A stretch of DNA of 24,224 bases, taken from Vermamoeba vermiformis. Its lineage: Eukaryota. Under the pieces are notes generated by a model. That model was not told where the DNA came from. It did not search any database and worked only from the letters and a program-made list of their open reading frames with translations. The position numbers and the translations under genes were made by a program. The stretch is from the NCBI GenBank assembly GCA_045837725.1, contig JBEWZL010000244.1:496001-520224 (forward strand), written 5' to 3'. Positions 4,247 through 24,224 of the stretch are shown piece by piece. Every line of letters begins with the position of its first letter. The stretch's first letter is position 1.

Positions 4247-6973
4247 CTACTGCTTGTTATATTGCTCCATGATAACATCAGCCCACGTGTTCGGATCTTG
4301 GTTCTCGATCTGTTGGAACACGCTCTCTTTGTCTATTGAAACGACCTTGCCAGCAGCCATCATATTCAACTTCAATGCTAGAAACATCCAAGTAAACAAG
4401 AGCGACTTGAGACGAGTTCTTTCCGCATCGACAACTTCGCTGGATGCGCCCAAAGTGTTGCTACTTCCGTTTGAGACCGCAGCGCTTCCGTTGGTGTTTG
4501 TATTACTGGCGTTCTTAGATTTGTTCTGAAGACTTTGCACTTGTTTCTTCAAGTTGTTGACTTGCTGTTCGAATTGACGACGTTGTTTTTCAGCGTCACC
4601 GTACTGTTTGCGCATGCGATTGAGGTCATCGCGCAACTGGTTGTAGTTTTTCATCTTCTTTTCCAGACCGGTTATATGTTGCTTGTACTTGGCTTCGACT
4701 TGTTTAGTAATCTCCGCTTCAACTAAATAAATAGTAAGTTACTATTCACGTGCTCAATTGATGCATTAGGTACTTACTCTTCGCGGTGTCGCTATTGTTA
4801 TTGTTAGCTGCTTGAGCCTTGAGCGTCTCGAGCTCCCTCTTCGTGTTGGCGAGTTCAGTGTCAAGCTTCTTTTTGGCGGCCAACTCTTCTTCTAGAACGG
4901 ACAGTTTGGCCTCAAGTGCAGCTCGCTCAATGTTCGAAGCCTGAGAGCTACCTCGTCTCTTCGAAGTCAAATCATTGAGCTGCTTTCGCAAGGCTTCGGT
5001 CGTCTTCTGTTCGCTCTCGAGTTGCTTTTTCATCGCGGTAACAACAGGTCCTTCAGTGTTGTTGTCATTTCCGCGACCGCTGCCATTGCTGTTCGATCGC
5101 TTAGGCGAGTCTGTCACGGACTTTTTAAGCGACGCTACTTCATCTTGTAACTTCTTTCTAGCGTCCTTTGACTGCTCAAGTTCTTGCGTCAATGTTTCAA
5201 TTTGTTTTTTCAATGCAGCAGTGTTGTCTTTGGTGCCATTAGCGCTGCTTGGTGCTGACGATTGAGCCTTTGAGAGTTCAGCGGAGAGCTTGTTCTTCTC
5301 TTCAGTCAGCTTTAGTACTTCTTGAACGTACTTGTTTTGATCTTGAACGGCTTTGTTCTTCTCTTCGGACAGAAGAGCAATTTCTCCCTCGAGCTTCTTC
5401 TTGTCAGCGTTGAGCTGAGACTCAACCTTGTCCTTGGCCTGCTTGGCCTTTTCATTCTCGCTCTTAGCCACGGTGAGCTCTTCTTTTAACTTCGCCATCT
5501 CGGCTGCGAGCTTGTTCTTTTCTTCAACAGCTGCGGCACGATCTTTTTTCTCCTTGCCGAGTTCAGCGTTCGCTGAATCACGTTCTTTTGTCGCTTGATC
5601 GAGACTCGAAGACAATTTTTTGTTTTCTTGAGTCTTTTCGTTGAGCTTGGCATCAGAGGCCTTGAGCTTTTTCTCAAGGTCGATTTGCGTGGCAATTTCA
5701 ACGCCCAATTGATCCTCGACCATCTTAATGTACGTCTCGAGGACGGTTTTCTCCTTGATTTCGTTGTTAAGTCGGGCTTCGAGTTCTTTTTCTCGTTTCA
5801 GTGACTCTTCGTAGTTCTTTTGCACGCGATCGAAGACGATATCCAAGTGCTCTTCACCGGTCATAATCAGCTCTTTTTCCTTTTCGTTCAAATTGACGGG
5901 TTCTTCGATGTTGACAGGTTTTTCCTAGCTTCACGTCAATAAGCGTGCCACCGGTAACAAAGCTTCTATTACTTACTTCGTAGAAGAAGGGGAAATACTC
6001 GATCATATCGCGCACGATAAGCACCACGCTGCCTGAGTCGCGCATCATTGACTCCAAGTCCTCGCCTGCGTTCAATGTCAGCGCGCTAATTCCGGGTTTA
6101 TTACATAAATTACATACCTTCTTTGCGCAATATGCTTGGGCCAATGACGACTGATAAATTCTCTGAGGTCATTTTATTCACTTTTGACTTTCTCTGTGGG
6201 GTGTCAAATGTCAATTTTGATTAAAATTCAAAACTATTTGGTACGCACCTGAATAGCGTATAATAAGAATAATAGTGACTTAATGACACGCTTGTTTGTT
6301 TCTGGCATTGAGCTAGTTATTACGGCTTTAATAATCGTCAATCTTTTCTTTGTGTCATCGCTCATCTCGTGTGCGGTGTGGATCAAATATCCGTATAAAT
6401 TGAATGGAATTAAGGGTTCTACAATATTATTAGATATTACCACTAAAATAGTAAATATACTTGCCGTGAAGCTTGCGCAGTAGTTGCTTCAAACATCCGG
6501 CGACATCATGCACATCATATTGATTGAGATCGATGTCGTCGCTTGCTATAACAATATTTTAGAAATTTATAATGAATTAATAGCGTGGCAGGCTTACGAT
6601 TTTTGCTGATCGCTTTTTTCAATTCATTGATGCGATCTGCGCTTCCAGAAACACGAAAAACTCCTTCAACATCCAAAGCTGGTTTTAAATGATCAGAAAT
6701 AATATCTCCATATAAAAAAATTGCATGAATCAATTCAATTTAAAATTTAATTGATTGAATATTTATACTTTTTAATACACACCTATTTTTTCTAAATGTT
6801 GTTGCAACCGTAAAAAGGCAGGCTCTAAATCGCTCAATGTTAACGGGGCTTTTTTCTTCTTGCCAACCGTTTTGGCGATTTTGGATTTGAATTTCTCCTG
6901 TAACCCCAGATCAGTAATCTTGAGCTTATTCACGGGCAGTATTACTCACCACCAGATTTCCACCTTCACTCAT
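4247..6973 (-). CDS. RhoGAP domain protein with long coiled coil; multi-exon
   Basis: ATG at 6973 (MSEGGNLV|EKFKSK...). ALDVEGVFRVSGS carries the arginine finger; also VAGCLK, EPLIPFNLY, MPETNKRVIKSLL, NKMTSENLSVVIGPSI. Followed by ~500 aa of K/E-rich heptads (ORFs 4746-5891 and 4247-4654). Confidence 0.9.
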
Positions 6974-9170: not shown

Positions 9171-12100
9171 ATGGCGACTAACAACAGAACTATTAAAACC
9201 TTGCTTATCGATAATTATGATTCGTACACCTTTAACTTATTTCAATATTTGGCCGAAGTGAACGGAGAAGAGCCAGATGTAATCTACAATAATCAGTGTG
9301 ATGCGAATAGAATTTTGCAAGACATCAATGGTGGCAAATATGATAATATTGTCATATCACCTGGACCAGGTTTACCCTCCAACGAGCAAGGTACGTTACG
9401 CGCGGATTTGAATCTCTCTTCTGCTTCTTCTGCGTTGTTGTTTATTGCCGTAAACATTGGAACTGAATACACTTAACATTTATATTAATTTGATAGTATT
9501 AATCCAGATTTTGGTATTTGCGCAGCCTTAATCCGTGAAGCCTCCATCCCGATCCTCGGTGTGTGCTTAGGCTACCAAGGTATTGCAGTGCGGTGTCTAT
9601 ACGAGAAGGTCTGTTAATATATTTGATTAGGCATTGCTCTCGCTTACGGAGCGCAGTTAGCTCCTTCTTCACGAATTGTGCACGGGGAAGTTGGAAGAAT
9701 GCGGCACAATGAGGATCCTTTGTTCAAGGACATTCCCAGGCACTTCGATGCTGTGAGGTACCACTCGTGGATAGTGCAAGACCCATTGCCTACTGAGCTC
9801 GAGCCTATCGCGTGGTGTGAGGAAACGGATCGCGTGAGTGTCTCGCGTACCGATATGTAAGTGCATCGATACTCATCGAGGAAGATGGTAGCTAACTTTT
9901 GCTCACAATAGTGTTATGGCATTAAAGCACAAGTCGAAGCCCTTGTGGGGTGTGCTCTTTCATCCCGGTATGTTCGTCGAGATTTTGTTCGATCTAATCC
10001 GCATGGCTAACTTTCAGCTTTAGAATCGGTCTGCACGTTGCACGGAAAGCAAATATTAAAAAACTTTGCGTCTTTATCGACAAAAGTTGACGTGCACGCG
10101 ATACCTCTGTCAGTAACGCCGTTAGAGCACAAGACGAATACCACACAAGTCAAGTACCTTAAGCACTCAGCAAAATACTTGGCACAACAAACTTCAGCAC
10201 TTTTTGAGTGTCTCTTTAGCGGAGCTATTGATACAGAAAGATTTTGGTTGGATTCGTCACGAGCCGAGCCTGGTCTCAGTCGGTTTTCATTCATGGGCAC
10301 GATGAACGGACCGCACTCGGAAACGATGAGGTATCACGTGAACACTAAGAAGCTTATATTATCAACTGCAGGCAACGAGCGGGAGCAGCTGTTGGCCGAT
10401 GATCAAGATTTCTTTGCGTTCATTCGGTCCTACCTACGCGAAAAAGGGTACTATCACGATGGTAAGTAACATAGTATTTCGGCTTCATTTCGCTAATTTA
10501 CGACTAGAATCATTGCCCTTTGACCTACAGTGTGGTCTTGTAGGCTATTTTGGATACGAGATGAAGTATGAGTCTTTAGCAACTTCAAACCTTCAGCAAA
10601 CCTCGACTCTTCCCGATGCTTACTTGCTGTTTGCTGATCGCATAGTCGTCATTGATCACCAGCTAAACGACATCTATGTTGTTGCACTCTCGTTCTCAGC
10701 TGAGAATGAGGCTTGGTTGCATAGCACACTGGCTCAAATCCAGCAACTCGATGACTCCGCTACTTCAGCTTCAGTCAGCGGAGCTTCCAAGAGTTCCCTT
10801 ACTGTGAGCCTGCGTGCTGATTACAGCACCTATACATGTAAGTCTACAACGTGAGCGAATGTTTAAAGCTAATATGAAACGCGCAGCACAAATCAAGCAA
10901 TGCCTCAAGGAGATCGAGTTGGGTGAGAGCTATGAGCTGTGTTTAACCAATCAGCTCGTAGTTGATGGTTGCACTGTGCCGCCTCTCGAATTTTACAAAG
11001 CACTCCGCGATGCAAATCCAGCGCCTTACGCGTCATTCTTCGACTTCAAGACTTTTTCAGTTGTCAGCTCATCGCCCGAAAAATTCATCTCGCTTGACCG
11101 TCAAGGATTAGTTGAGTCTAAGCCAATCAAAGTAAGTCCTATACCTGCCTTTTCAAGCGTGCACTTAACAGGACTCCAGGGAACAATAAAGCGAGGTGCT
11201 ACGAGTGTCGAGGACGCCGAGTTAAAGCAGAAATTGCAGACGAGCAAAAAAGACTTTGCGGAGAATTTGATGATCACAGATCTCATTCGCAACGACTTGG
11301 GCCGAGTTTGCCAAATTGGGTCTGTTCGTGTTCCCAAGCTCATGGATGTTGAGAGCTACGCAACAGTTCATCAACTCGTCACCACTGTGCAAGGTCAGAT
11401 CAGTCCTCACAAGGACGCAATTGACTGCTTCAAAGCTGCATTCCCACCAGGGTCAATGACTGGCGCTCCTAAGCTGCGCTCAACGCAAATACTAGAAAGG
11501 TAAGTTCTCATGTGGCATATTGAATGAAGCTGACTTGAGTGCCAGGTTGGAGGGTAGACCGAGAGGAATCTATTCTGGAGCTATTGGCTACTTCTCGCTC
11601 AACCAAACGTGTCACTTTAATGTTGTTATACGCACAGCTGTCATGCATAACAACTCGATTTCTATTGGCTGCGGAGGTGCTCTTGTTATGGAGTCCAACG
11701 CCGATGAAGAATTCGAAGAGATGTTATTGAAGGGTCGCGCATTGATTAGAACTTTGGCACGATTATCCGGTCAAGATGACGATGTCAGAATAGTTGGCGC
11801 AACAAAGAAGGCGGAGTTCAATGGCGTCAAATACTTGGAGGATCTTTCAACGAAGAGTGGCGCGTTGGATTTATCATTAGACAGAATCAAGCGCGTGCTC
11901 TCGCTACTAAATCAGCCGCAAGAACAAGTGCCTATGATCCACGTGACTGGCACGAATGGCAAGGGCTCCGTGTGCGCGTACATCTCATCGGTACTCATAG
12001 AGAAAGGACTTAAAGTCGGCCGATTCACTTCGCCGCATTTGATTCGCTGGCACGAGAGCATTCAAATCAACAACATGGACATCGGCGACGACGAATTTAA

Positions 12101-13830
12101 CGAGCTCTTTTATGAGGTCTATCGAGTGACTCAACAGAACAATGCACCGCTGTCACAGTTCGAAGCGCTGACAGTGGCTGCGTACTTACATTTTGCCAAG
12201 TCCAAATGTGATGTCAATGTTATCGAAGTTGGCATGGGAGGCAGAGACGATGCAACAAACGTCTGCAGCTCACCCTTGATGTGCGTCATCACGTCGATTG
12301 GCTTGGATCACATGGCATTCTTGGGCAACACGCACGTGAAGATTGCCGAGAACAAGGCAGGAATCATTAAAACCGGTCGTCCTTGTGTCATATCAGGCAC
12401 TATTATCACCGAGGCTCGTGAAGCGATTGCCAAGTACGCTCACAATTTGAATGCGCCGTTGCACATCGTCAACTCTCCAGCCACGTTAATTGACGAGACA
12501 AGTCAGCTCGCAGAGTTCGAAGGCCTGAAATATCGGTTGCCGTTGCTTGGCGAGCATCAATTGATGAACTCAGCATTAGCCATTACCGCACTGCGCTTGT
12601 TGAAAGACCACTCTTCGAGCATGTTGTTCAACCTGACTGATGACGATATCGCCAATGGCATGTACCGAGTGCGATGGCCTGCAAGGTTGCAATTCATCGC
12701 GTGGAACAACAAACGAGTGCTAATTGACGGTGCTCACAATGAAGAAGGAGGCAGAGCGTTGCGTCGCTTTATCAACAAATTGAAAGCTCCTGATGGCACT
12801 GCCATGAAGATCAATTGGATAATGGGAATGCTATCTTCCAAGGATCACAGCCAATTTTTCAAAGAGACATTAGCACCTGGAGACTCATTGACTATAGTCC
12901 CTGTTGCTCCGAACGTTGACTGGTTATTTACGGCAGATACAAATGTCCTTGTTCAAAAGGCACGAGACATCTGCCCGCAACTGCACGACGTTCACGAGCA
13001 CGCTAGTGTTTACGAGGCTTTGGACTATTTAACTGCAAGACAGGATAGCGATGACTTCAGTCACGCTGCTAATCGTCTAATCGTTGTTTCGGGCTCATTG
13101 CATCTGTGTGGCAATGTGCTGGCTAAGGCGCTTGGTTTCTCATTGCTGGAAACAATGCTGTACGATCCAAAGCTTCAAAACGGCTCGATATTCCTTCTAC
13201 CTGAACATCTTGCTCGACTGACTTCCTCAGCTCAGTACTTCAATATTCCCGTCAACGCAGCAAAGATTCAACAGCAGCTGGCTGCTATTGCTTGCACTTG
13301 GCATACACCAAAGAGAGTCCGCCTGTTAGTGCACCCACAGCGCAACAACGAAGTCGAAATTCAAGCGCACGATGTTATCTACGACTTCGATCAGTTTCCT
13401 CCATCAAGACTAAAGCTAGCGACAAGGGCTATCTCCAAACGCAACGTGTTCCTCTACCACAAAACAACACAGAGAGACGTGTATGAAAACGCCAAGCTTG
13501 ACACCCACAATTGTGGTATGTGACTACAGTATAGTTTAACTCGAGTCGAGTTATTCTTATTCTTCGACGACAGATGACGTTATCTTATACAACGAAGAAG
13601 GACTAGTTACCGAAACAACAATAGGCAATATAGCTGTCCGATTCAAGAATGACGCGGTGTGGTACACGCCACCCATCAGCTGTGGAGTGTTGCCGGGTTG
13701 CATGAGACAACGCATGCTCGACACCGCAGCTCTGACCGAACGCGTCATCACTGTGGACGAGTTGAAGACAGCCGAAGAAATTAAGCTGTTGAACTCTGTG
13801 CGTGGTACATGGGGTGGGGTCTTAAATTAA
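9171..13830 (+). CDS. Multifunctional folate enzyme: glutamine amidotransferase (PabA) + ADC synthase (PabB) + dihydrofolate/folylpolyglutamate synthase (FolC) + ADC lyase (PabC); ~1377 aa, 10 exons
   Basis: Exons 9171-9390, 9508-9579, 9631-9856, 9912-9967, 10024-10461, 10508-10837, 10887-11131, 11180-11499, 11546-13515, 13574-13830 total 4134 nt in frame. PabA: LLIDNYDSYTFNL, ISPGPG, GVCLGYQG, RYHS, FHPES. PabB: SSSPEKF, KPIKGT, ENLMITDLIRNDLG, FPPGSMTGAPK, RGIYSGAIG. FolC: IHVTGTNGKGS, FTSPHL, EVGMGGRDDATN, IDGAHN. PabC: HLARLTSSA, FLYHKTT, VTETTIGN, GVLPGCMR, NSVRG. The last few codons are uncertain (a further small intron is possible). Confidence 0.93.
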
Positions 13831-14690: not shown

Positions 14691-14979
14691 CCCAAAGCGT
14701 GACGCCAACTTCTTCACAGTCCCTCTGGCAGCTTCAATGGCAAGCGTGCAACACAAATTCGAGCCGTTTGCTTACCGTGCGTGAGCACTTGCCGCCAAAT
14801 TTTTTGGATGTGGTCACCCGCCCTGCCAAAATTTTTGGGTGTGCACTCAGCCCGCCAAAACTCACGTCCCTAATCATCATTAATATACCTTTGGGGTTAA
14901 GGTTAAAGGTTGAGGGGTGAAGAGTCCCTGATTGTATGACGTAAAATAAATGAGTTAGTAGAAGTTTATACTCAGTCAA

Positions 14980-15459
14980 AGCATCCGAACTTCGGATGGT
15001 CAAAAACCAGCTTTGAATAACTGATAGCTAGATAGTTAGAGGCATCCGATGTTCGGACGGTTATAACCAGCTATGTACTTCTAATAGCCCATATTCTCCA
15101 ACAAGGGCATCCGATGTTCGGATGGTCTAACAAGTAGCTACAAAAACCTAATAGCTCATTTTTGAATGCATAGGCATCCGATGTTCGGATGGTCTAACAA
15201 GTAGCTACAAAAACCTAATAGCTCACTTTTGATTACATAGGCATCCGAAATTCGGATGGTCTAAAAGTAGCTACAAAAACCTAATAGCTCACTTTTGAAT
15301 GCATAGGCATCCGAAGTTCGGATGGTCTAAAAGTAGCTACGAAAACCTGATATCTCATTTTTGAACGTATAGGCATCCGAACTTCGGATGGTCTATAAAG
15401 TTGCCTGAAAAAGTTAAAGTCTCATTAGAAGGCACAGGCATCCGAAATTCGGATGGTCC
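14980..15459. repeat. Tandem array of 8 palindromic units, period 61-67 bp
   Basis: Core GGCATCCGA-NN-TTCGGATGGTC at ~14980, 15041, 15106, 15173, 15240, 15306, 15372, 15437. Inner linkers are near-identical (AAGTAGCTACAAAAACCTAATAGCTCA); outer linkers are diverged. Confidence 0.95.
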
Positions 15460-15527: not shown

Positions 15528-18029
15528 TTACTTTTTACCTGCTGCTGCTTTAAGGTAATTTAAGGAGTCTTCTCTCTCCTTCTTCGCTTTGCGGCGCTTG
15601 TAATTTGCCAGATCCAGCTTTAAGTGCTGCATCACTTGGCCAGACCCATTGTGATGCATCTCATATACCAAGAACATGTCTCGGGGCATGACTGTCTCAC
15701 GTCTGGCATGGATGGCAGCAAGCTGGGCCATTGCAAAAACATCGCTGATGAAGTACTCAGCACCAAATTGAATAGCCTCCATGGCCGATTTCTGCCAGCG
15801 GATTTCTTCGCGTAGCTCAGGAGGTACGAGGTCCAAAGTGACCTCACGGACGAGTAGCTGAAAGGCTCGTCGACTGATCATGAGCCCTTCTTCGTTTTTG
15901 TAATGTTTCATTTCTTTCATAACTAAAAACATTAAAATTAGCCAAAAAGAATATAGCCGTAAATGTGCAACTTACACTGAGCCCGTTGATGATCTTTCAA
16001 CTCTTTTTTTTGGCTCGGCGACAGGGGCCTGTTTCGCTTCTTCGTTTTCAACAAGTCGTGTTTTTGTCGCTGGAAAACCCTGGCCTTAACAGCTTTTGGC
16101 AACGCCACCACCGGCTCGGATTCGAGGGTAAAATTGTCCTCGGGCTCGTCCTCTTGAATATCATCCTTGTCAATGCTCAGCTGCAACTTTGGCTTTGGAT
16201 AAACCGGATTATCCACTGCTTCGTGGAAAGGAAGCACCCTCTGTCCAAATTCCTGCGTGCTGAACAGATCGAAACTGCGGCGACTTTCCTCACTGGACTC
16301 GCTGGCCTCTTCGTCGGAAACGATGACTCTTGTTTTCTAACAATTTGTTAGTTTCGGTATATACTTTACATTACGGCAAACTTACCTTCTTGGGCCTTGG
16401 GTTGGCATCTTCATCGTCCGAGTGCTTGCGTTTACCAAGTGATTGATCTTCGTACTCGGAGACCTGCTCTTTTTTGTTAGCAACGCGTGTTTACGAATTA
16501 ATTGTCTTACCTCATCACTTGGAACTGGGGTGTTATTGTTCTTCCCCTTGCCCTTCTTTTTCTTCTTCGGGCTTGGCGCCGCACCCTCTGTACCATCACC
16601 AGCACCATCCTCCGTGGTCTTTGAGCTCTTTGATTTTTTGGTGGTAGCACTACCCGCCTTTGATTTTTTAGGAGTTGACGTGGCACTATTTGTCTACGAT
16701 TTAAAAATCAGCTATCTCCGCCCAATAGCCATTATTTAAACATACCTTTTGCGCCTTCGATTTTTTGGGAGTTGACGTAGCACTATTTGCCTTCAATTTT
16801 AAAAATCAGCTATAGTCGCCCAATAGCCATTATTTAACCATACCGTTTGTGCCGTATTCTCAACCTCGGGCTCTCGGTCACTGGGTTCGACTGGGACCTC
16901 CTAAAGTAAAAGGTTATATAAAAACTATGCCAAATAAATACGCACCACCTGTTCTTCAACCTCATCCATGTTTTCGTCGGTGATGGGAGGTGTTGGTGCT
17001 CGGGCAAGCACCTGTGTCGCGTCAGGGTCCGCACTTCCCAGCTCCACCTCAGGGTCCGCACTTTCACGCTCCGATGCCCCGCGAATGATTTGCGTAGCAT
17101 CAGGGTCCTCTGAATTGCCTTCTTCTTCTTGCTGGCCCCTCTCCAAACTCTGGCGATCAGAAGCCTCTTCCCCCGATTGGTGGCTCTGTTCACCATTGGC
17201 AGTGCCACCCGTTGTAGCCTGACGAGCATTACGTGATGGTCGTCTACGGTTAGATCTGCGCTTTGCTGGCGACAGTGACGGCTGTGGATTGGCACCGGCT
17301 TTGCCTTTTACTGGCGTCGGAGGCGGAGCCTTGCCTTTCGCTGACGATGGTGGCGGCGGCGATTTGGCACCAGTCTTGCCCTTTGCCGACGATGGTGACG
17401 GCGACGGCGACGGTGGTGGATTGGCACCGGTCTTGCCCTTTGCTGGCGGTGCTTTGGCGCTAGCCTTTCCCTTTGCCGGCGATGGTGGATTGGCACCGGT
17501 TTTGCCTTTTACTGGCGTCGGAGGCGGAGCCTTGCCTTTTGCTGACGATGGTGGCGGCGGCGATTTGGCACCAGTCTTGCCCTTTGGCGATGCTTTGGCC
17601 GGTGCTTGGCGAATTAAGACGCTAACCGGATCAGTTAGCCGTTAAAATTAATTACAATTTATTAAAAAATAATTACCTGGTAGTTCCTGCTTGCAATACA
17701 CCCGGGGCCCTAATATAAGCGTCAGCGTCGTGCTTTTTATGTAAATAAAATTGTACTTACCTTCTTTGTCGTGGAGAACTACGAGTATTGCCAGATCTAC
17801 GAAATTAAAAATTAAGTAAGCAATTAGAATAAATGATTTCGTTGTAAATATTCTTTCTCATATTTAAAATAAAAATATAATTTAATTTACTTACGTTTCT
17901 GGCTGTTGATCTGCGTCGTTTTTGGATGCGTTCTTATCTCCGGACCTACTCAAATAATTAGTCCCGTATTATATATGTATAACGTCCTGTTTAAACTTAC
18001 TTTGATTTGCTACCCTTAGATTTGGGCAT
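15528..18029 (-). CDS. Giant histone H3 variant (CenH3/CENP-A-like), ~647 aa, 11 exons
   Basis: Exons 18029-18001, 17945-17895, 17796-17761, 17709-17677, 17621-16946, 16900-16844, 16790-16746, 16693-16511, 16463-16386, 16336-15976, 15922-15528 join with consistent phases (1944 nt). The last exon is an H3 fold: KEMKHYKNEEGLMISRRAFQLLVREVT...RWQKSAMEAIQFGAEYFISDVFAMAQLAAIHARRETVMPRDM. Confidence 0.85.
17260..17600 (-). repeat. Coding repeat in H3-variant tail (AKGKTGA-K/N-Pro/Ser-rich units)
   Basis: A ~100-bp block at ~17285-17385 recurs at ~17486-17586; about eight KGK units are embedded in Pro/Ser runs. Confidence 0.85.
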
Positions 18030-20682: not shown

Positions 20683-21344
20683 CTACCAAACAATAATATC
20701 AATGTAAGGCACGGTCGTCGTTAACTGCCAATCGCATCCGGTTGAACCGTTGGACGAAAAGCAGCAAGATCTTGTGACAGATGCTGGAATCCGGCTTTTC
20801 TCTGGGTGAACCGTTGAGAAAAGAATGTGCGTGCGCGGTTTGATGGAAACCAGCTGCACGCACACTCTAAAAAGCCGGGTGAAGACCGGAATGAACCGTT
20901 GTCTTCGATCATCTCGAGATTGAATGCGCGGTTCGATGAGAACCAGCAACACTCTACTCGATGCCATGCACCTTTTAATAAATCGTGCAGCCACGTGAGG
21001 CTACTCCGAGCAGGACCACCACATAGCACAACCAGTTTTCCAGATGTGCGTGCGTAATCCGGCTCCAAATATTTTTTATTTTATTAACTATTATTTGATT
21101 AAAGTTATTATTATGCAAATACTTTTTTTTGAACACTTACGTATTTTTCACTCGTTGTGGTGTCGCTAACGGTAACTTGAGTGAATGAACACGTGCGTAA
21201 AAACAAAAAAGGAAACAAAAAATGTCGGCCAAAAAATCTTGGCTAAAAAATCTTGCGCGAAAAATCTTGGCCAAAAATTGTCGGCCAAACCAATCAGCGC
21301 CAACAATCCGTCCAATCAATATGAACAACACAAATCACGCGAAG

Positions 21345-22240
21345 GTAAGTTTGCAATAATAATATTAATTACAATAATAATATTAACTCGTTTTAAACAG
21401 CTAGGATAATCTTTCGAGAATCTTGCGTTCTCGTTCTCGATCCTGCAGTCTCCCAGCTTCCAAACTCGGTACGTATATTAATATTTATTTACTTACATAC
21501 TAACTGTTTATATTAAGAGCTTACCAGTCTCAATTTTGCGTGGCTCGCAACATCGCCGATACGAATCACGTCTCGTCTTTGCGCAGCGAGTTCCAGCTTG
21601 CAGACTTCACGGTACGTATATTTACGTTGATTTAACTATATTACTAACTTTTTTTAATAATTCAGAACTCATCGAGCCTCAATTCAGCGAGCTCGCAACA
21701 TCGCGCATGCGAATCACGTTCTCGTTCTCGATTCAGTACGATCCCCCAGCTGCCTAACTCAAGGTACGAATATTAAGCTTTATTATAATAACATTACTAA
21801 CTCTTATTTACAGTTCAGAGCTCACCAGGTCTCAAATTTACCGACTCTCAACATCGATGATTCGAATCACGCTTCTCGTGCTTGATTCAGCACGGTCTCC
21901 CAGCCTGCAGACTTCACGGTACGTATATCCACATTGATGTAATTGCATTACTAACTTTTATTTATAATTCAGAGCTCACCAAGTCTCAATTCAGCGAGCT
22001 CGCAACATCGCGCATGCGAATCACGTTCTCGTTCTCGATTCAGTACAATCCCCCAGCTGCCTAACTCAAGGTACGTATATTAAGCTTTACTACAATTACA
22101 TTAGTAACTCTTATTTACAGTTAAGAGCTAGCCGAGTCTCAATTTTAGACACTCGCAACATCGAATCACGTTCTCGTTCTCGATCCAGCACAGTCTCCCA
22201 GCTTACAGACTTCACGGTACGTGTATCTATATTTAATATG
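21345..22240 (+). repeat. Tandem array of ~6 intron+exon-like units (143-155 bp period; 307-bp dimeric higher-order repeat)
   Basis: GTACG donors at 21469, 21612, 21764, 21919, 22071, 22217; TACTAAC-like branch points and YAG/AAG acceptors; shared core CTCGCAACATCG...CGAATCACGTTCTCGTTCTCGAT...CCCAGC. Confidence 0.9.
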
Positions 22241-22697
22241 TGGAAAAACCTGTTTCCTAGGAGTTAGGGTACAAAAGGAAGCTGTTTTGGTGTAAAAACA
22301 TGAAAATAAAAATACCTTAATTTGACGTCAAAAAACGTGCAATTATTAAAAAGTATGCAATTTCAGCAGTTGCTGTGCAACTTCCTGATCTGAAGCCAAT
22401 CAGGAAGAGTACACACCAGGAAAAAAAAAGCCCAAGTTTTTGCTAAAATCTGTTCCTGATTGGGGTCAAATCGGGAAAAAACAACAACATGGTTGATATC
22501 GGCGCAGGTTCGAAGCCCAGTACTTGCAAATTGTTGCCGCCAGGATTCGAACCTGTGTGTAGCAAGCAACAGAATTATAAATGCAATTGGAAAATCCTCC
22601 CAGGGAGGCAGGGAGGCAATTCACCCAAAATTGAGAAAGTCAATCTACATCATTTTAATTACCCCATAACGCAGAGCAACACACAAGTCGCCCAAAT

Positions 22698-24224
22698 ATG
22701 GCAAGGTAAGTCCACGTGCTTTGAAATCTCTGGTGAAATTTCGTTTCCCTGTCCCGATTGGCAGCCAATAGGGAGCAATTTTAAGTTGTTGATTTTACAA
22801 TCCCGATTGGCTGCGTATCGGGAAGATCCAATTTTTTTAATTCGTTGGTAGCGATCCCGATTGGCTCCAGATCGGGAAGACCCAAATTTAACGAGGCCCT
22901 CGTTAACATCCCGATTGGCAGCCAACGGGGGGCATCCCGATTGGCAGCCAATCGGGAAAGCTCAAATTTTACAAGTCCCAAGGGTCATCCCGATTGGCAG
23001 CCAATCGGGAAGGGTGCCCTGGGTTGTTTCTTTGTATCATCCCGATTGGCGCCAGATCGGGAAACCTTTTGGTCTAGTCTACTTACTGCAAACTTACTAA
23101 CCTTTTTAACCTGCAGTAACAACACCAACAGATCGTTCAACCCCCCTCGCCAGCACACCGCAGAAGAGCTGGATAACATGGTACAGCACGTCACAAGGTC
23201 TGTGACCAGGAACTCACCCCCAGCTGCCCAAGGCCCAAACAACAACGTCAGCCCTCCGCGACCTGGCCAAGCAAAGACCCAAGCAGTGGCCAAGGGAGGA
23301 CTCAAGCTCGCCCTGCCAAGGAGCACCATTGGTGGCAAAGCCCAGGCAATTTTGGCTCCGTCAACACCACCCAAGGAAAAGCTTATCCCCCAGTTTGCGA
23401 CCCCAGACAAGTTTCTTATGGCTGAGGCGGATGACTCTTCCTCTGCCGAAGGTGATGCCACTGGTGATGCCATTGGCCAGGACAACTTTGATGGGATCAC
23501 CGACACTCAGGCTATAAGGGCAATCGAGGCTTTGGAGTCCGAAGCTGCTGCAGGATCAACAAGACCCGAGGTTGACGAGAAAGATAGCGAAGTCCAGCAG
23601 CAGATGTCGTTGCGAGAATGGGTGGAGCAGCAAATGGACTTGGTGTCCACCGCGTCAACATCCATGTCCAAATTCAGCGATGACATACGTTCGACAGGCC
23701 CGACAAATGGCAACTGGTATATTGAGCCAGATGCCCAGAACCAAGTGTTGGTTTACCGTGGGACCATGTTCGATGATAAGAACCAGGTCATCAAATTGTC
23801 GGGGCCACAAATTATGCTCAAGGTGGTGAAAGCCAACCCATACCAATGGCTTGCCATGCTAGACTTTTCGCGAGAGGTGCCCACGCTTTACTCACTGAAG
23901 GTTACGTCTTGCTGGGCCGTCGACAGTGTCAATGGATGCCTGAAATCCTGGAAGTTGACAAAGCATACGACAAAAGGCCAAATCAGCTGGAAGTTTGAAG
24001 AGCGGTTCAAAAATTGGAAAAACATGTACGACTTGGCCGTGCAAGAGGGTCCAGTGTCACGACCCGACCAACTGACGGATAACCAGCTCGAGTCCATCAG
24101 AGAGCTTGAAACCAGGGAGGAGGTCATGATCCAATTGAGCACCCCAGCCCCGCCAGCAAAGGACCCCGAACCCACGATTACCGAAGAGCAGCAAGTAAGT
24201 TTCCTGTAATTCTAGAATACATCC
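22698..24224 (+). CDS. Orphan protein, 5' part (continues beyond window); exon 1 22698-22705, exon 2 23117-24194
   Basis: ATGGCAAG|GTAAGT at 22698-22711; branch TACTAAC ~23095 and CTGCAG acceptor at 23116 give MASNNTNRSFNPPRQ... in frame with ORF 22845-24209; next donor CAA|GTAAGT at 24195. Disordered N-terminus then a W-rich, probably globular segment; no family recognised. Confidence 0.7.
22752..23062. repeat. Array of seven 23-bp palindromes (TCCCGATTGGC-A-GCCAATCGGGA) with mostly distinct 26-31 nt spacers
   Basis: Copies start at 22752, 22801, 22855, 22909, 22935, 22988, 23040. The left arm is invariant and the right arm is degenerate in some copies. All lie within predicted intron 22706-23116. 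Confidence 0.92.

Follow-up and report, generated by a model that had tools for sequence, protein, structure and literature searches.

The window (the whole stretch of DNA that was analysed, 24,224 nt) carries nine copies of a 23-bp palindrome around the putative start of an orphan gene, seven in a putative first intron and two in the promoter. We judge it about evenly probable that this is a decayed tandem duplication in which the palindromic, CCAAT-containing core is a putative protein-binding site. An ancestral unit of ~53 bp would have been duplicated in tandem, inflating the first intron of the orphan gene. The spacers would have drifted almost to random while the 23-bp core was kept by the binding of a sequence-specific, probably dimeric, protein. 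The nine copies would form a homotypic cis-regulatory cluster around the gene start, with sites ~5 helical turns apart. A preliminary description of this DNA had offered two readings of the intronic repeats. One of them, an array of sites for a dimeric protein at intervals of ~5 helical turns, fits the features of the sequence and is the explanation preferred here. A CRISPR-like array yielding guide-like small RNAs is unsupported, given the eukaryotic setting, the absence of Cas domains, the promoter copies, the related spacers and the lack of covariation.

The host gene and its putative first intron

The 5′ part of the host gene was assigned as follows.

22698–22705, + strand: putative start codon and 8-nt first coding exon (ATGGCAAG), predicted from the sequence
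22706–23116, + strand: putative 411-nt first intron, with GTAAGT at 22706, TACTAAC at 23095–23101 and CAG at 23114–23116
23117–24194, + strand: putative second exon of the host gene (orphan protein); the gene leaves the window past the GTAAGT at 24195

The reading frame stays open across the putative splice into 23117 onward, and positions 23118–24194 give a 359-aa translation without stops. A short-intron pattern scan of the window returned 48 candidates of 36–143 nt, 37 of them 42–62 nt long; the pattern is crude, cannot report introns longer than ~156 nt, and its candidates are unvalidated. A 411-nt intron would be unusual in this window. The 411-nt interval of the preliminary description was confirmed, and it carries intron signals (GTAAGT...TACTAAC...CAG).

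The predicted host protein belongs to no Pfam family. Two relatives were found by word search and six among 1.84 billion representatives, and one relative is 40 % identical; there was no Atlas match and, at E up to 1, none to a PDB sequence. The AlphaFold model had a mean pLDDT of 39.8, too poor for a fold search. The preliminary description had proposed testing the host gene for nuclease or transposase folds; in the Pfam search, the protein showed no such domain. Across the 24 ORFs of at least 100 aa in the window, Pfam identified actin-family, GATase, chorismate-binding, Mur-ligase, aminotransferase IV and histone-fold domains together with weak coiled-coil matches. None of the 24 had a Cas, nuclease or transposase domain, in agreement with the earlier remark that no cas gene is seen. 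A tRNA scan of the window found none. By its predicted gene content, the window is ordinary eukaryotic gene space. The same DNA was found in sequencing of one labelled organism and in several water, aquifer and biofilm metagenomes.

A tandem repeat with a period of 153/307 nt occupies 21426–22227, and its unit comprises a short exon-like stretch and a complete short intron (GTACGT...TACTAAC...CAG). The gene upstream seems to have grown by duplication of this exon–intron unit.

Palindromic repeats within the putative intron

A pattern scan of the window allowing 0–3 mismatches identified seven matches to TCCCGATTGGCNGCCAATCGGGA, all on the + strand. None of 100 dinucleotide shuffles of the window contained any match, and the array is far beyond chance. 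The repeat has the form TCCCGATTGGC-N-GCCAATCGGGA, is 23 bp long and is present in seven copies spanning 22752–23062.

22752–22774, + strand: core copy 1, one mismatch; right arm GCCAATAGGGA
22801–22823, + strand: core copy 2, two mismatches; right arm GCGTATCGGGA, CCAAT lost
22855–22877, + strand: core copy 3, three mismatches; right arm CCAGATCGGGA
22909–22931, + strand: core copy 4, three mismatches; right end and spacer shortened in the strain of the window
22935–22957, + strand: core copy 5, perfect palindrome (11+1+11)
22988–23010, + strand: core copy 6, perfect palindrome (11+1+11)
23040–23062, + strand: core copy 7, three mismatches; right arm GCCAGATCGGGA

The steps between core starts are 49, 54, 54, 26, 53 and 52, leaving spacers of 26, 31, 31, 3, 30 and 29 nt in order, exactly as first described. 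Two of the seven intronic copies are perfect; the other five have 1–3 mismatches, which fall either at the centre or in the right arm. The sequences of copies 5 and 6 complement each other over their full length, and in copies 1, 4, 5 and 6 the half-sites TTGGC and GCCAA lie 1 nt apart. The main array was absent from the output of Tandem Repeats Finder at a min_score of 30, indicating that its units are too diverged for a plain tandem repeat. This absence had been overlooked in the preliminary description, as had the one-sided conservation of the arms, the two upstream copies (U1 and U2) and a likely strain-specific deletion, each of which is set out below. A separate perfect palindrome with a single central base, TTAACGAGG-C-CCTCGTTAA, lies within spacer 3 (22888–22906).

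Conservation of the core and the CCAAT motif

Conservation was strongly unequal along the unit. The left arm, TCCCGATTGGC, is identical in all seven intronic copies, with a mean pairwise column identity of 1.00 over 11 columns. Mean identity was 0.74 for the right arm, with 0.84 for the outer seven positions (ATCGGGA) and 0.55 for the inner four. For the spacers it was 0.35, compared with 0.27 expected from base composition, and the spacers are thus near random. Both arms still carry their outer heptamers, TCCCGAT and ATCGGGA, and the left arm never lacks TTGGC. Copies 2, 3 and 7 have changes in the inner right arm that are not matched on the left, which is invariant.

Read on the minus strand, the left arm of every intronic copy is GCCAATCGGGA, a CCAAT box with flanks. 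These flanks, CAGCCAATCGG, resemble the NF-Y preference; the pentamer with such flanks occurs as GCCAATCGGGA in all seven intronic copies and as CCAATCAGG once each in U1 and U2. The degenerate motif CCAATCRGG was found 12 times in the window against 0.22 expected, with 11 of the 12 occurrences within 22396–23049. Elsewhere in the 24 kb, the exact 9-mer CCCGATTGG is present at a single position, 17172, and this lone occurrence means that nothing in the window shows use of the motif by other promoters. In a full-text literature search, the 19-mer across the dyad was not found. Core 10-mers occur in 46 papers, and the matches among the 20 listed looked incidental, one of them being in an oligonucleotide.

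The dyad symmetry of the outer heptamers suggests a dimer, while the always-intact CCAAT arm makes NF-Y/HAP one candidate for the protein that may bind the invariant arm. CCAAT pentamers within one palindrome are 8 bp apart, and the boxes of successive copies are 49–54 bp apart. With this period, successive sites would face roughly the same side of the helix, although such phasing may simply reflect the size of the duplicated unit. The sequences directly show the repeats, their one-sided conservation, the promoter copies, the partial relatedness of the spacers and the difference in units between strains; selection on the cores, binding by a protein, the identity of that protein, any effect on transcription and the splicing of the host intron are inferred.

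Copies upstream of the start codon

Two further, degenerate copies of the core were detected 5′ of the ATG at 22698, both outside the putative intron.

22383–22405: U1, degenerate core (TCCTGATCTGAAGCCAATCAGGA); intact CCAAT arm on the + strand, inverted relative to the intronic copies
22454–22476: U2, degenerate core (TCCTGATTGGGGTCAAATCGGGA); intact CCAAT arm on the − strand, orientation as in the intronic copies

Each retains a single CCAAT arm, matching CCAATCAGGA and CCAATCAGG, on opposite strands; the two promoter copies, which have an arm of the form CCAATC(A/G)GGA in common, are thus mutually inverted. U1 and U2 form an inverted pair of 28 nt with 82 % complementarity. In U1, both arms are altered with pairing kept (TCCTGAT...ATCAGGA; columns 4/20). 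The placement of U1 and U2 is expected of a site in DNA and not of an RNA element of the intron.

The promoter stretch that separates U2 from the ATG contains another inverted repeat (22505–22555), CAGGTTCGAAGCC / GGATTCGAACCTG, with its arms 25 nt apart. Both arms resemble the tRNA T-arm or Pol III B-box consensus; no tRNA was called there by ARAGORN or Rfam. Joints seen in metagenome contigs at 22269>22602 and 22621>22690 were treated as unreliable, as their sides comprise only 20 letters.

Relatedness of spacers and differences between strains

The spacers had been described as mostly different, and this holds for 13 of the 15 spacer pairs, whose alignments were no better than those of shuffles; the summed similarity was likewise unremarkable (p 0.42). 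The exceptions are spacers 3 and 5 (p 0.008) and spacers 1 and 5 (p 0.012), which aligned better than shuffles. These related pairs indicate that units share ancestry, but the sequences only partly show a common descent of all units. According to the preliminary description, spacers that align as diverged copies of one unit would speak against guide-like spacers; this is partly what was found, in the form of the related pairs and of the tandem-repeat behaviour described below. By eye, spacers 2, 3 and 5 start alike (AGAYCCAAWTTT). The CCAAATTT tracts that open these three spacers resemble motifs in the noncoding stretches 14790–14870 and 21216–21289, which contain repeated GCCAAA(A/T)TTTTTGG-like motifs and a 14-nt tandem unit, CAAAAAATCTTGGC, present 5.3 times. 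No match longer than 12 nt was found between the spacers and the rest of the window.

Contigs from a water metagenome (run X3) that are otherwise identical over the array end at 22925 and 22933, and their loose ends overlap. We read these ends as the consensus right arm of copy 4 and, after it, a spacer of ~31 nt in place of the 3-nt spacer of the window; by eye, the reconstructed spacer resembles spacer 6. On that reading, the full unit in X3 implies that the 3-nt spacer of the window derives from a deletion and that the original period was regular throughout. The 3-nt spacer therefore looks like a strain-specific deletion, and such a difference in units between strains is tandem-repeat behaviour. 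Five differences between strains were seen in 22713–22852, one of them inside a core (22760, copy 1), which amounts to no visible depletion of changes in cores.

A second array and other short palindromes

A second array was identified at 14981–15456. It consists of eight copies of a 19-bp palindromic core, GCATCCGAA-N-TTCGGATGG, with a period of 61–67 bp. Spacers are near-identical among its central units and have diverged in the units at its edges. This array lies ~70 nt 3′ of an H3-like histone-fold ORF. Short-loop perfect palindromes were also numerous in the window, with 19 rows at 12 places compared with a mean of 3.4 rows in 20 shuffles, and all of the short perfect palindromes containing G or C have a single central base. 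Arrays with palindromic cores may thus form a general class of repeats in this genome, as opposed to regulators of particular genes. The presence of a second array built on another palindrome suggests that there may be a common route to noncoding elements in this genome.

Two further perfect palindromes, again with a single central base, lie close to the ends of long ORFs. TAACTCGA-G-TCGAGTTA (13537–13553) is 14 nt past the end of a 667-aa ORF, and AATAGTAA-G-TTACTATT (4730–4746) is at the 3′ end of a 381-aa minus-strand ORF.

Comparison with known repeat and binding-site systems

Minisatellites (VNTRs) with regulatory effects are found in introns and promoters; they are built of units of tens of bp, lie close to the 5′ end of a gene and differ between strains in unit content. 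The array has a similar unit size, strain-variable unit content and 5′ location, but its units are too diverged for Tandem Repeats Finder and only the core is conserved. The binding site of nuclear factor I (NFI) is TTGGC(N5)GCCAA, and to our knowledge NFI is a metazoan family. Inverted TTGGC and GCCAA half-sites are present in both cases; however, the gap in the array is 1 nt instead of 5 and its conservation extends to TCCCGAT and ATCGGGA. An NFI site was rejected, as copies 1, 4, 5 and 6 have the 1-nt gap and not TTGGC-N5-GCCAA.

Tandem CCAAT-containing repeats are described as NF-Y-bound enhancers in ERV-9/LTR12 (PMC3730095). The U3 repeats of ERV-9/LTR12 resemble the array in their head-to-tail CCAAT units, in tandem duplication and in their position near the transcription start (PMC3730095). 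In contrast, the core described here is a 23-bp dyad in which two inverted CCAAT boxes overlap, and it recurs with a period of ~53 bp. The array also lies in the putative first intron of a protist-like gene and not in a retroviral LTR. Promoter arrays of spaced CCAAT boxes are occupied by NF-Y in human data (PMC4889920). Such arrays and double-CCAAT modules share with this locus several regularly spaced CCAAT boxes around a gene start (PMC4889920; PMC1802594). Reported spacings of human double CCAAT boxes are 24–28 and 35–37 bp, with none below 19 bp (PMC4889920). The module so defined (at least 19 bp, typically 24–28 or 35–37 bp) differs from the array, in which boxes are 8 bp apart within a palindrome and 49–54 bp apart between copies. 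Boxes separated by 8 bp are too close for double occupancy, so that NF-Y could fill only one arm of each palindrome. NF-Y does not explain the second conserved heptamer.

Alternative explanations

The main rival is a neutral or selfish minisatellite of no service to the gene, in which the palindromic cores would promote slippage or template switching and short-tract gene conversion would keep them alike; we consider this rather unlikely. The second array of the same build, the enrichment of short-loop perfect palindromes across the window, the variation in unit content between strains and the restriction of the motif to one locus are all consistent with it. Taken as a minisatellite, the array has a period of 49–54 and two related spacer pairs, yet it is not reported by Tandem Repeats Finder and its total spacer similarity is at the level of shuffles. 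More difficult to reconcile with functionless repeats is a left arm that is identical in 11 of 11 columns in seven copies while the spacers are near random, since homogenisation of whole units would keep the spacers alike too and conversion tracts of ~11–23 bp would have to be assumed. The promoter copies, both of which have retained the CCAATC(A/G)GGA arm although they are oppositely oriented, also argue against functionless repeats. The window's own sequence is compatible with both regulatory use and a functionless repeat class. If the regulatory reading is true, the locus would be a clean case of a site cluster that arose by tandem duplication and was kept by selection while its spacers decayed, and a real binding site would allow the 23-bp sequence to be used directly as bait to isolate a transcription factor from a water-borne eukaryote that has been little studied. 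Otherwise, the array would be a decayed minisatellite of an ordinary kind; in neither case is it a eukaryotic analogue of CRISPR.

Action at the level of RNA, in which intron hairpins formed within a palindrome or between neighbours would give rise to small RNAs, bind a protein or modulate splicing, appears improbable. A more specific form, to which we assign a very low probability, is that the excised 411-nt putative intron is a hairpin-RNA cluster and that the orphan gene hosts a lineage-specific small-RNA or RNP locus. All cores being intercomplementary, neighbours would pair as 23-bp duplexes with ~30-nt loops and would serve as Dicer-type substrates or as a multivalent scaffold for an RNA-binding protein. 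The region 22707–23116 (410 nt) folds at −168.8 kcal/mol compared with −119.9 kcal/mol in shuffles (z −8.5), but a low folding energy follows trivially from repeated palindromes. The perfect and mutually complementary copies 5 and 6 and the double change in U1 that keeps pairing are also in keeping with RNA structure. miRNA-shaped Rfam matches at 22929–23020 and 22372–22485 point in the same direction, but their scores of 32.8 and 31.9 bits fall short of the gathering score, which is 100. Across 11 dyad pairs in nine copies, paired cells made up 85.2 % compared with 85.1 % in column shuffles (280 of 500 shuffles as high), and changes on both sides numbered 2 against 1.4 expected (226 of 500 as high). 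As pairing is at the level of column shuffles, it is explained by sequence conservation and base pairing need not be invoked. A miRNA-like or structured RNA is supported neither by the best Rfam score (32.8 bits) nor by any excess of paired cells or compensatory changes. Together, the lack of covariation, the fixed left arm opposite the altered inner right arms of copies 2, 3 and 7, and the location of U1 and U2 outside the putative intron favour a site read on DNA. A transposable-element remnant, with subterminal transposase-binding repeats or a foldback or MITE-like element in the 5′ end of the gene, is highly unlikely. The palindromic motifs, which recur in direct and, in U1 relative to the remaining copies, inverted orientation, do resemble subterminal repeats of some DNA transposons. 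However, the seven intronic copies are all direct with a regular period, the repeat lists for the window show only core-to-core pairs, and the 24 ORFs of at least 100 aa include no transposase or mobile-element domain. The earlier label 'subterminal' has no support, as neither transposon ends nor a transposase were seen. A pattern scan of metagenome contigs for TCCCGATTGGC-N5-ATCGGGA gave 49 loci, which were taken as chance: each has a single match, most are high in G+C, none has the inner GCCAA arm and none shows blastn likeness to the window. The same pattern gave 0 matches in viral contigs. Finally, we give almost no credence to a CRISPR-like adaptive array with spacers taken from foreign DNA and used as guides. 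In geometry alone the likeness is real, as both have short, partly palindromic repeats (here 23 bp) and mostly different spacers of similar length (here 26–31 nt). The differences are that this array lies in a eukaryotic intron and promoter with splice signals, in a window with actin-family and H3-like histone genes and no cas-like domain, and that its host protein has no known fold or family. Its repeats have decayed on one arm only, further copies lie upstream, one of them inverted, and spacers 3 and 5 and spacers 1 and 5 are interrelated. The preliminary description had called for a search of the spacers for foreign targets; they matched nothing in a phage collection and nothing over 12 nt elsewhere in the window, and the whole intron likewise had no blastn match in the phage collection. 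On the features of the sequence, the CRISPR-like reading is close to refuted.

Other features of the window

ORF pieces in a row on the + strand at 9171–13523 matched GATase, anthranilate-synthase-N, chorismate-binding, Mur-ligase M/C (folylpolyglutamate-synthase-like) and aminotransferase class IV (PabC-like) domains. The 667-aa ORF by itself runs from the end of the chorismate-binding domain through the Mur-ligase domains into the first part of aminotransferase IV. This order of domains suggests a fused gene of the folate/PABA pathway.

The histone-fold ORF (15528–15932, − strand) matched the C-terminal part of the core histone profile with an E value of 2e-16 and is H3-like by eye. Upstream of it on the same strand, the region 16000–17650 contains long, repetitive open stretches rich in G/P/K/A, with 33-nt repeats at 17415–17517, and a 98-nt unit is present twice at 16655–16853. 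The histone-fold ORF and these stretches may together encode a variant H3 with a long repetitive tail.
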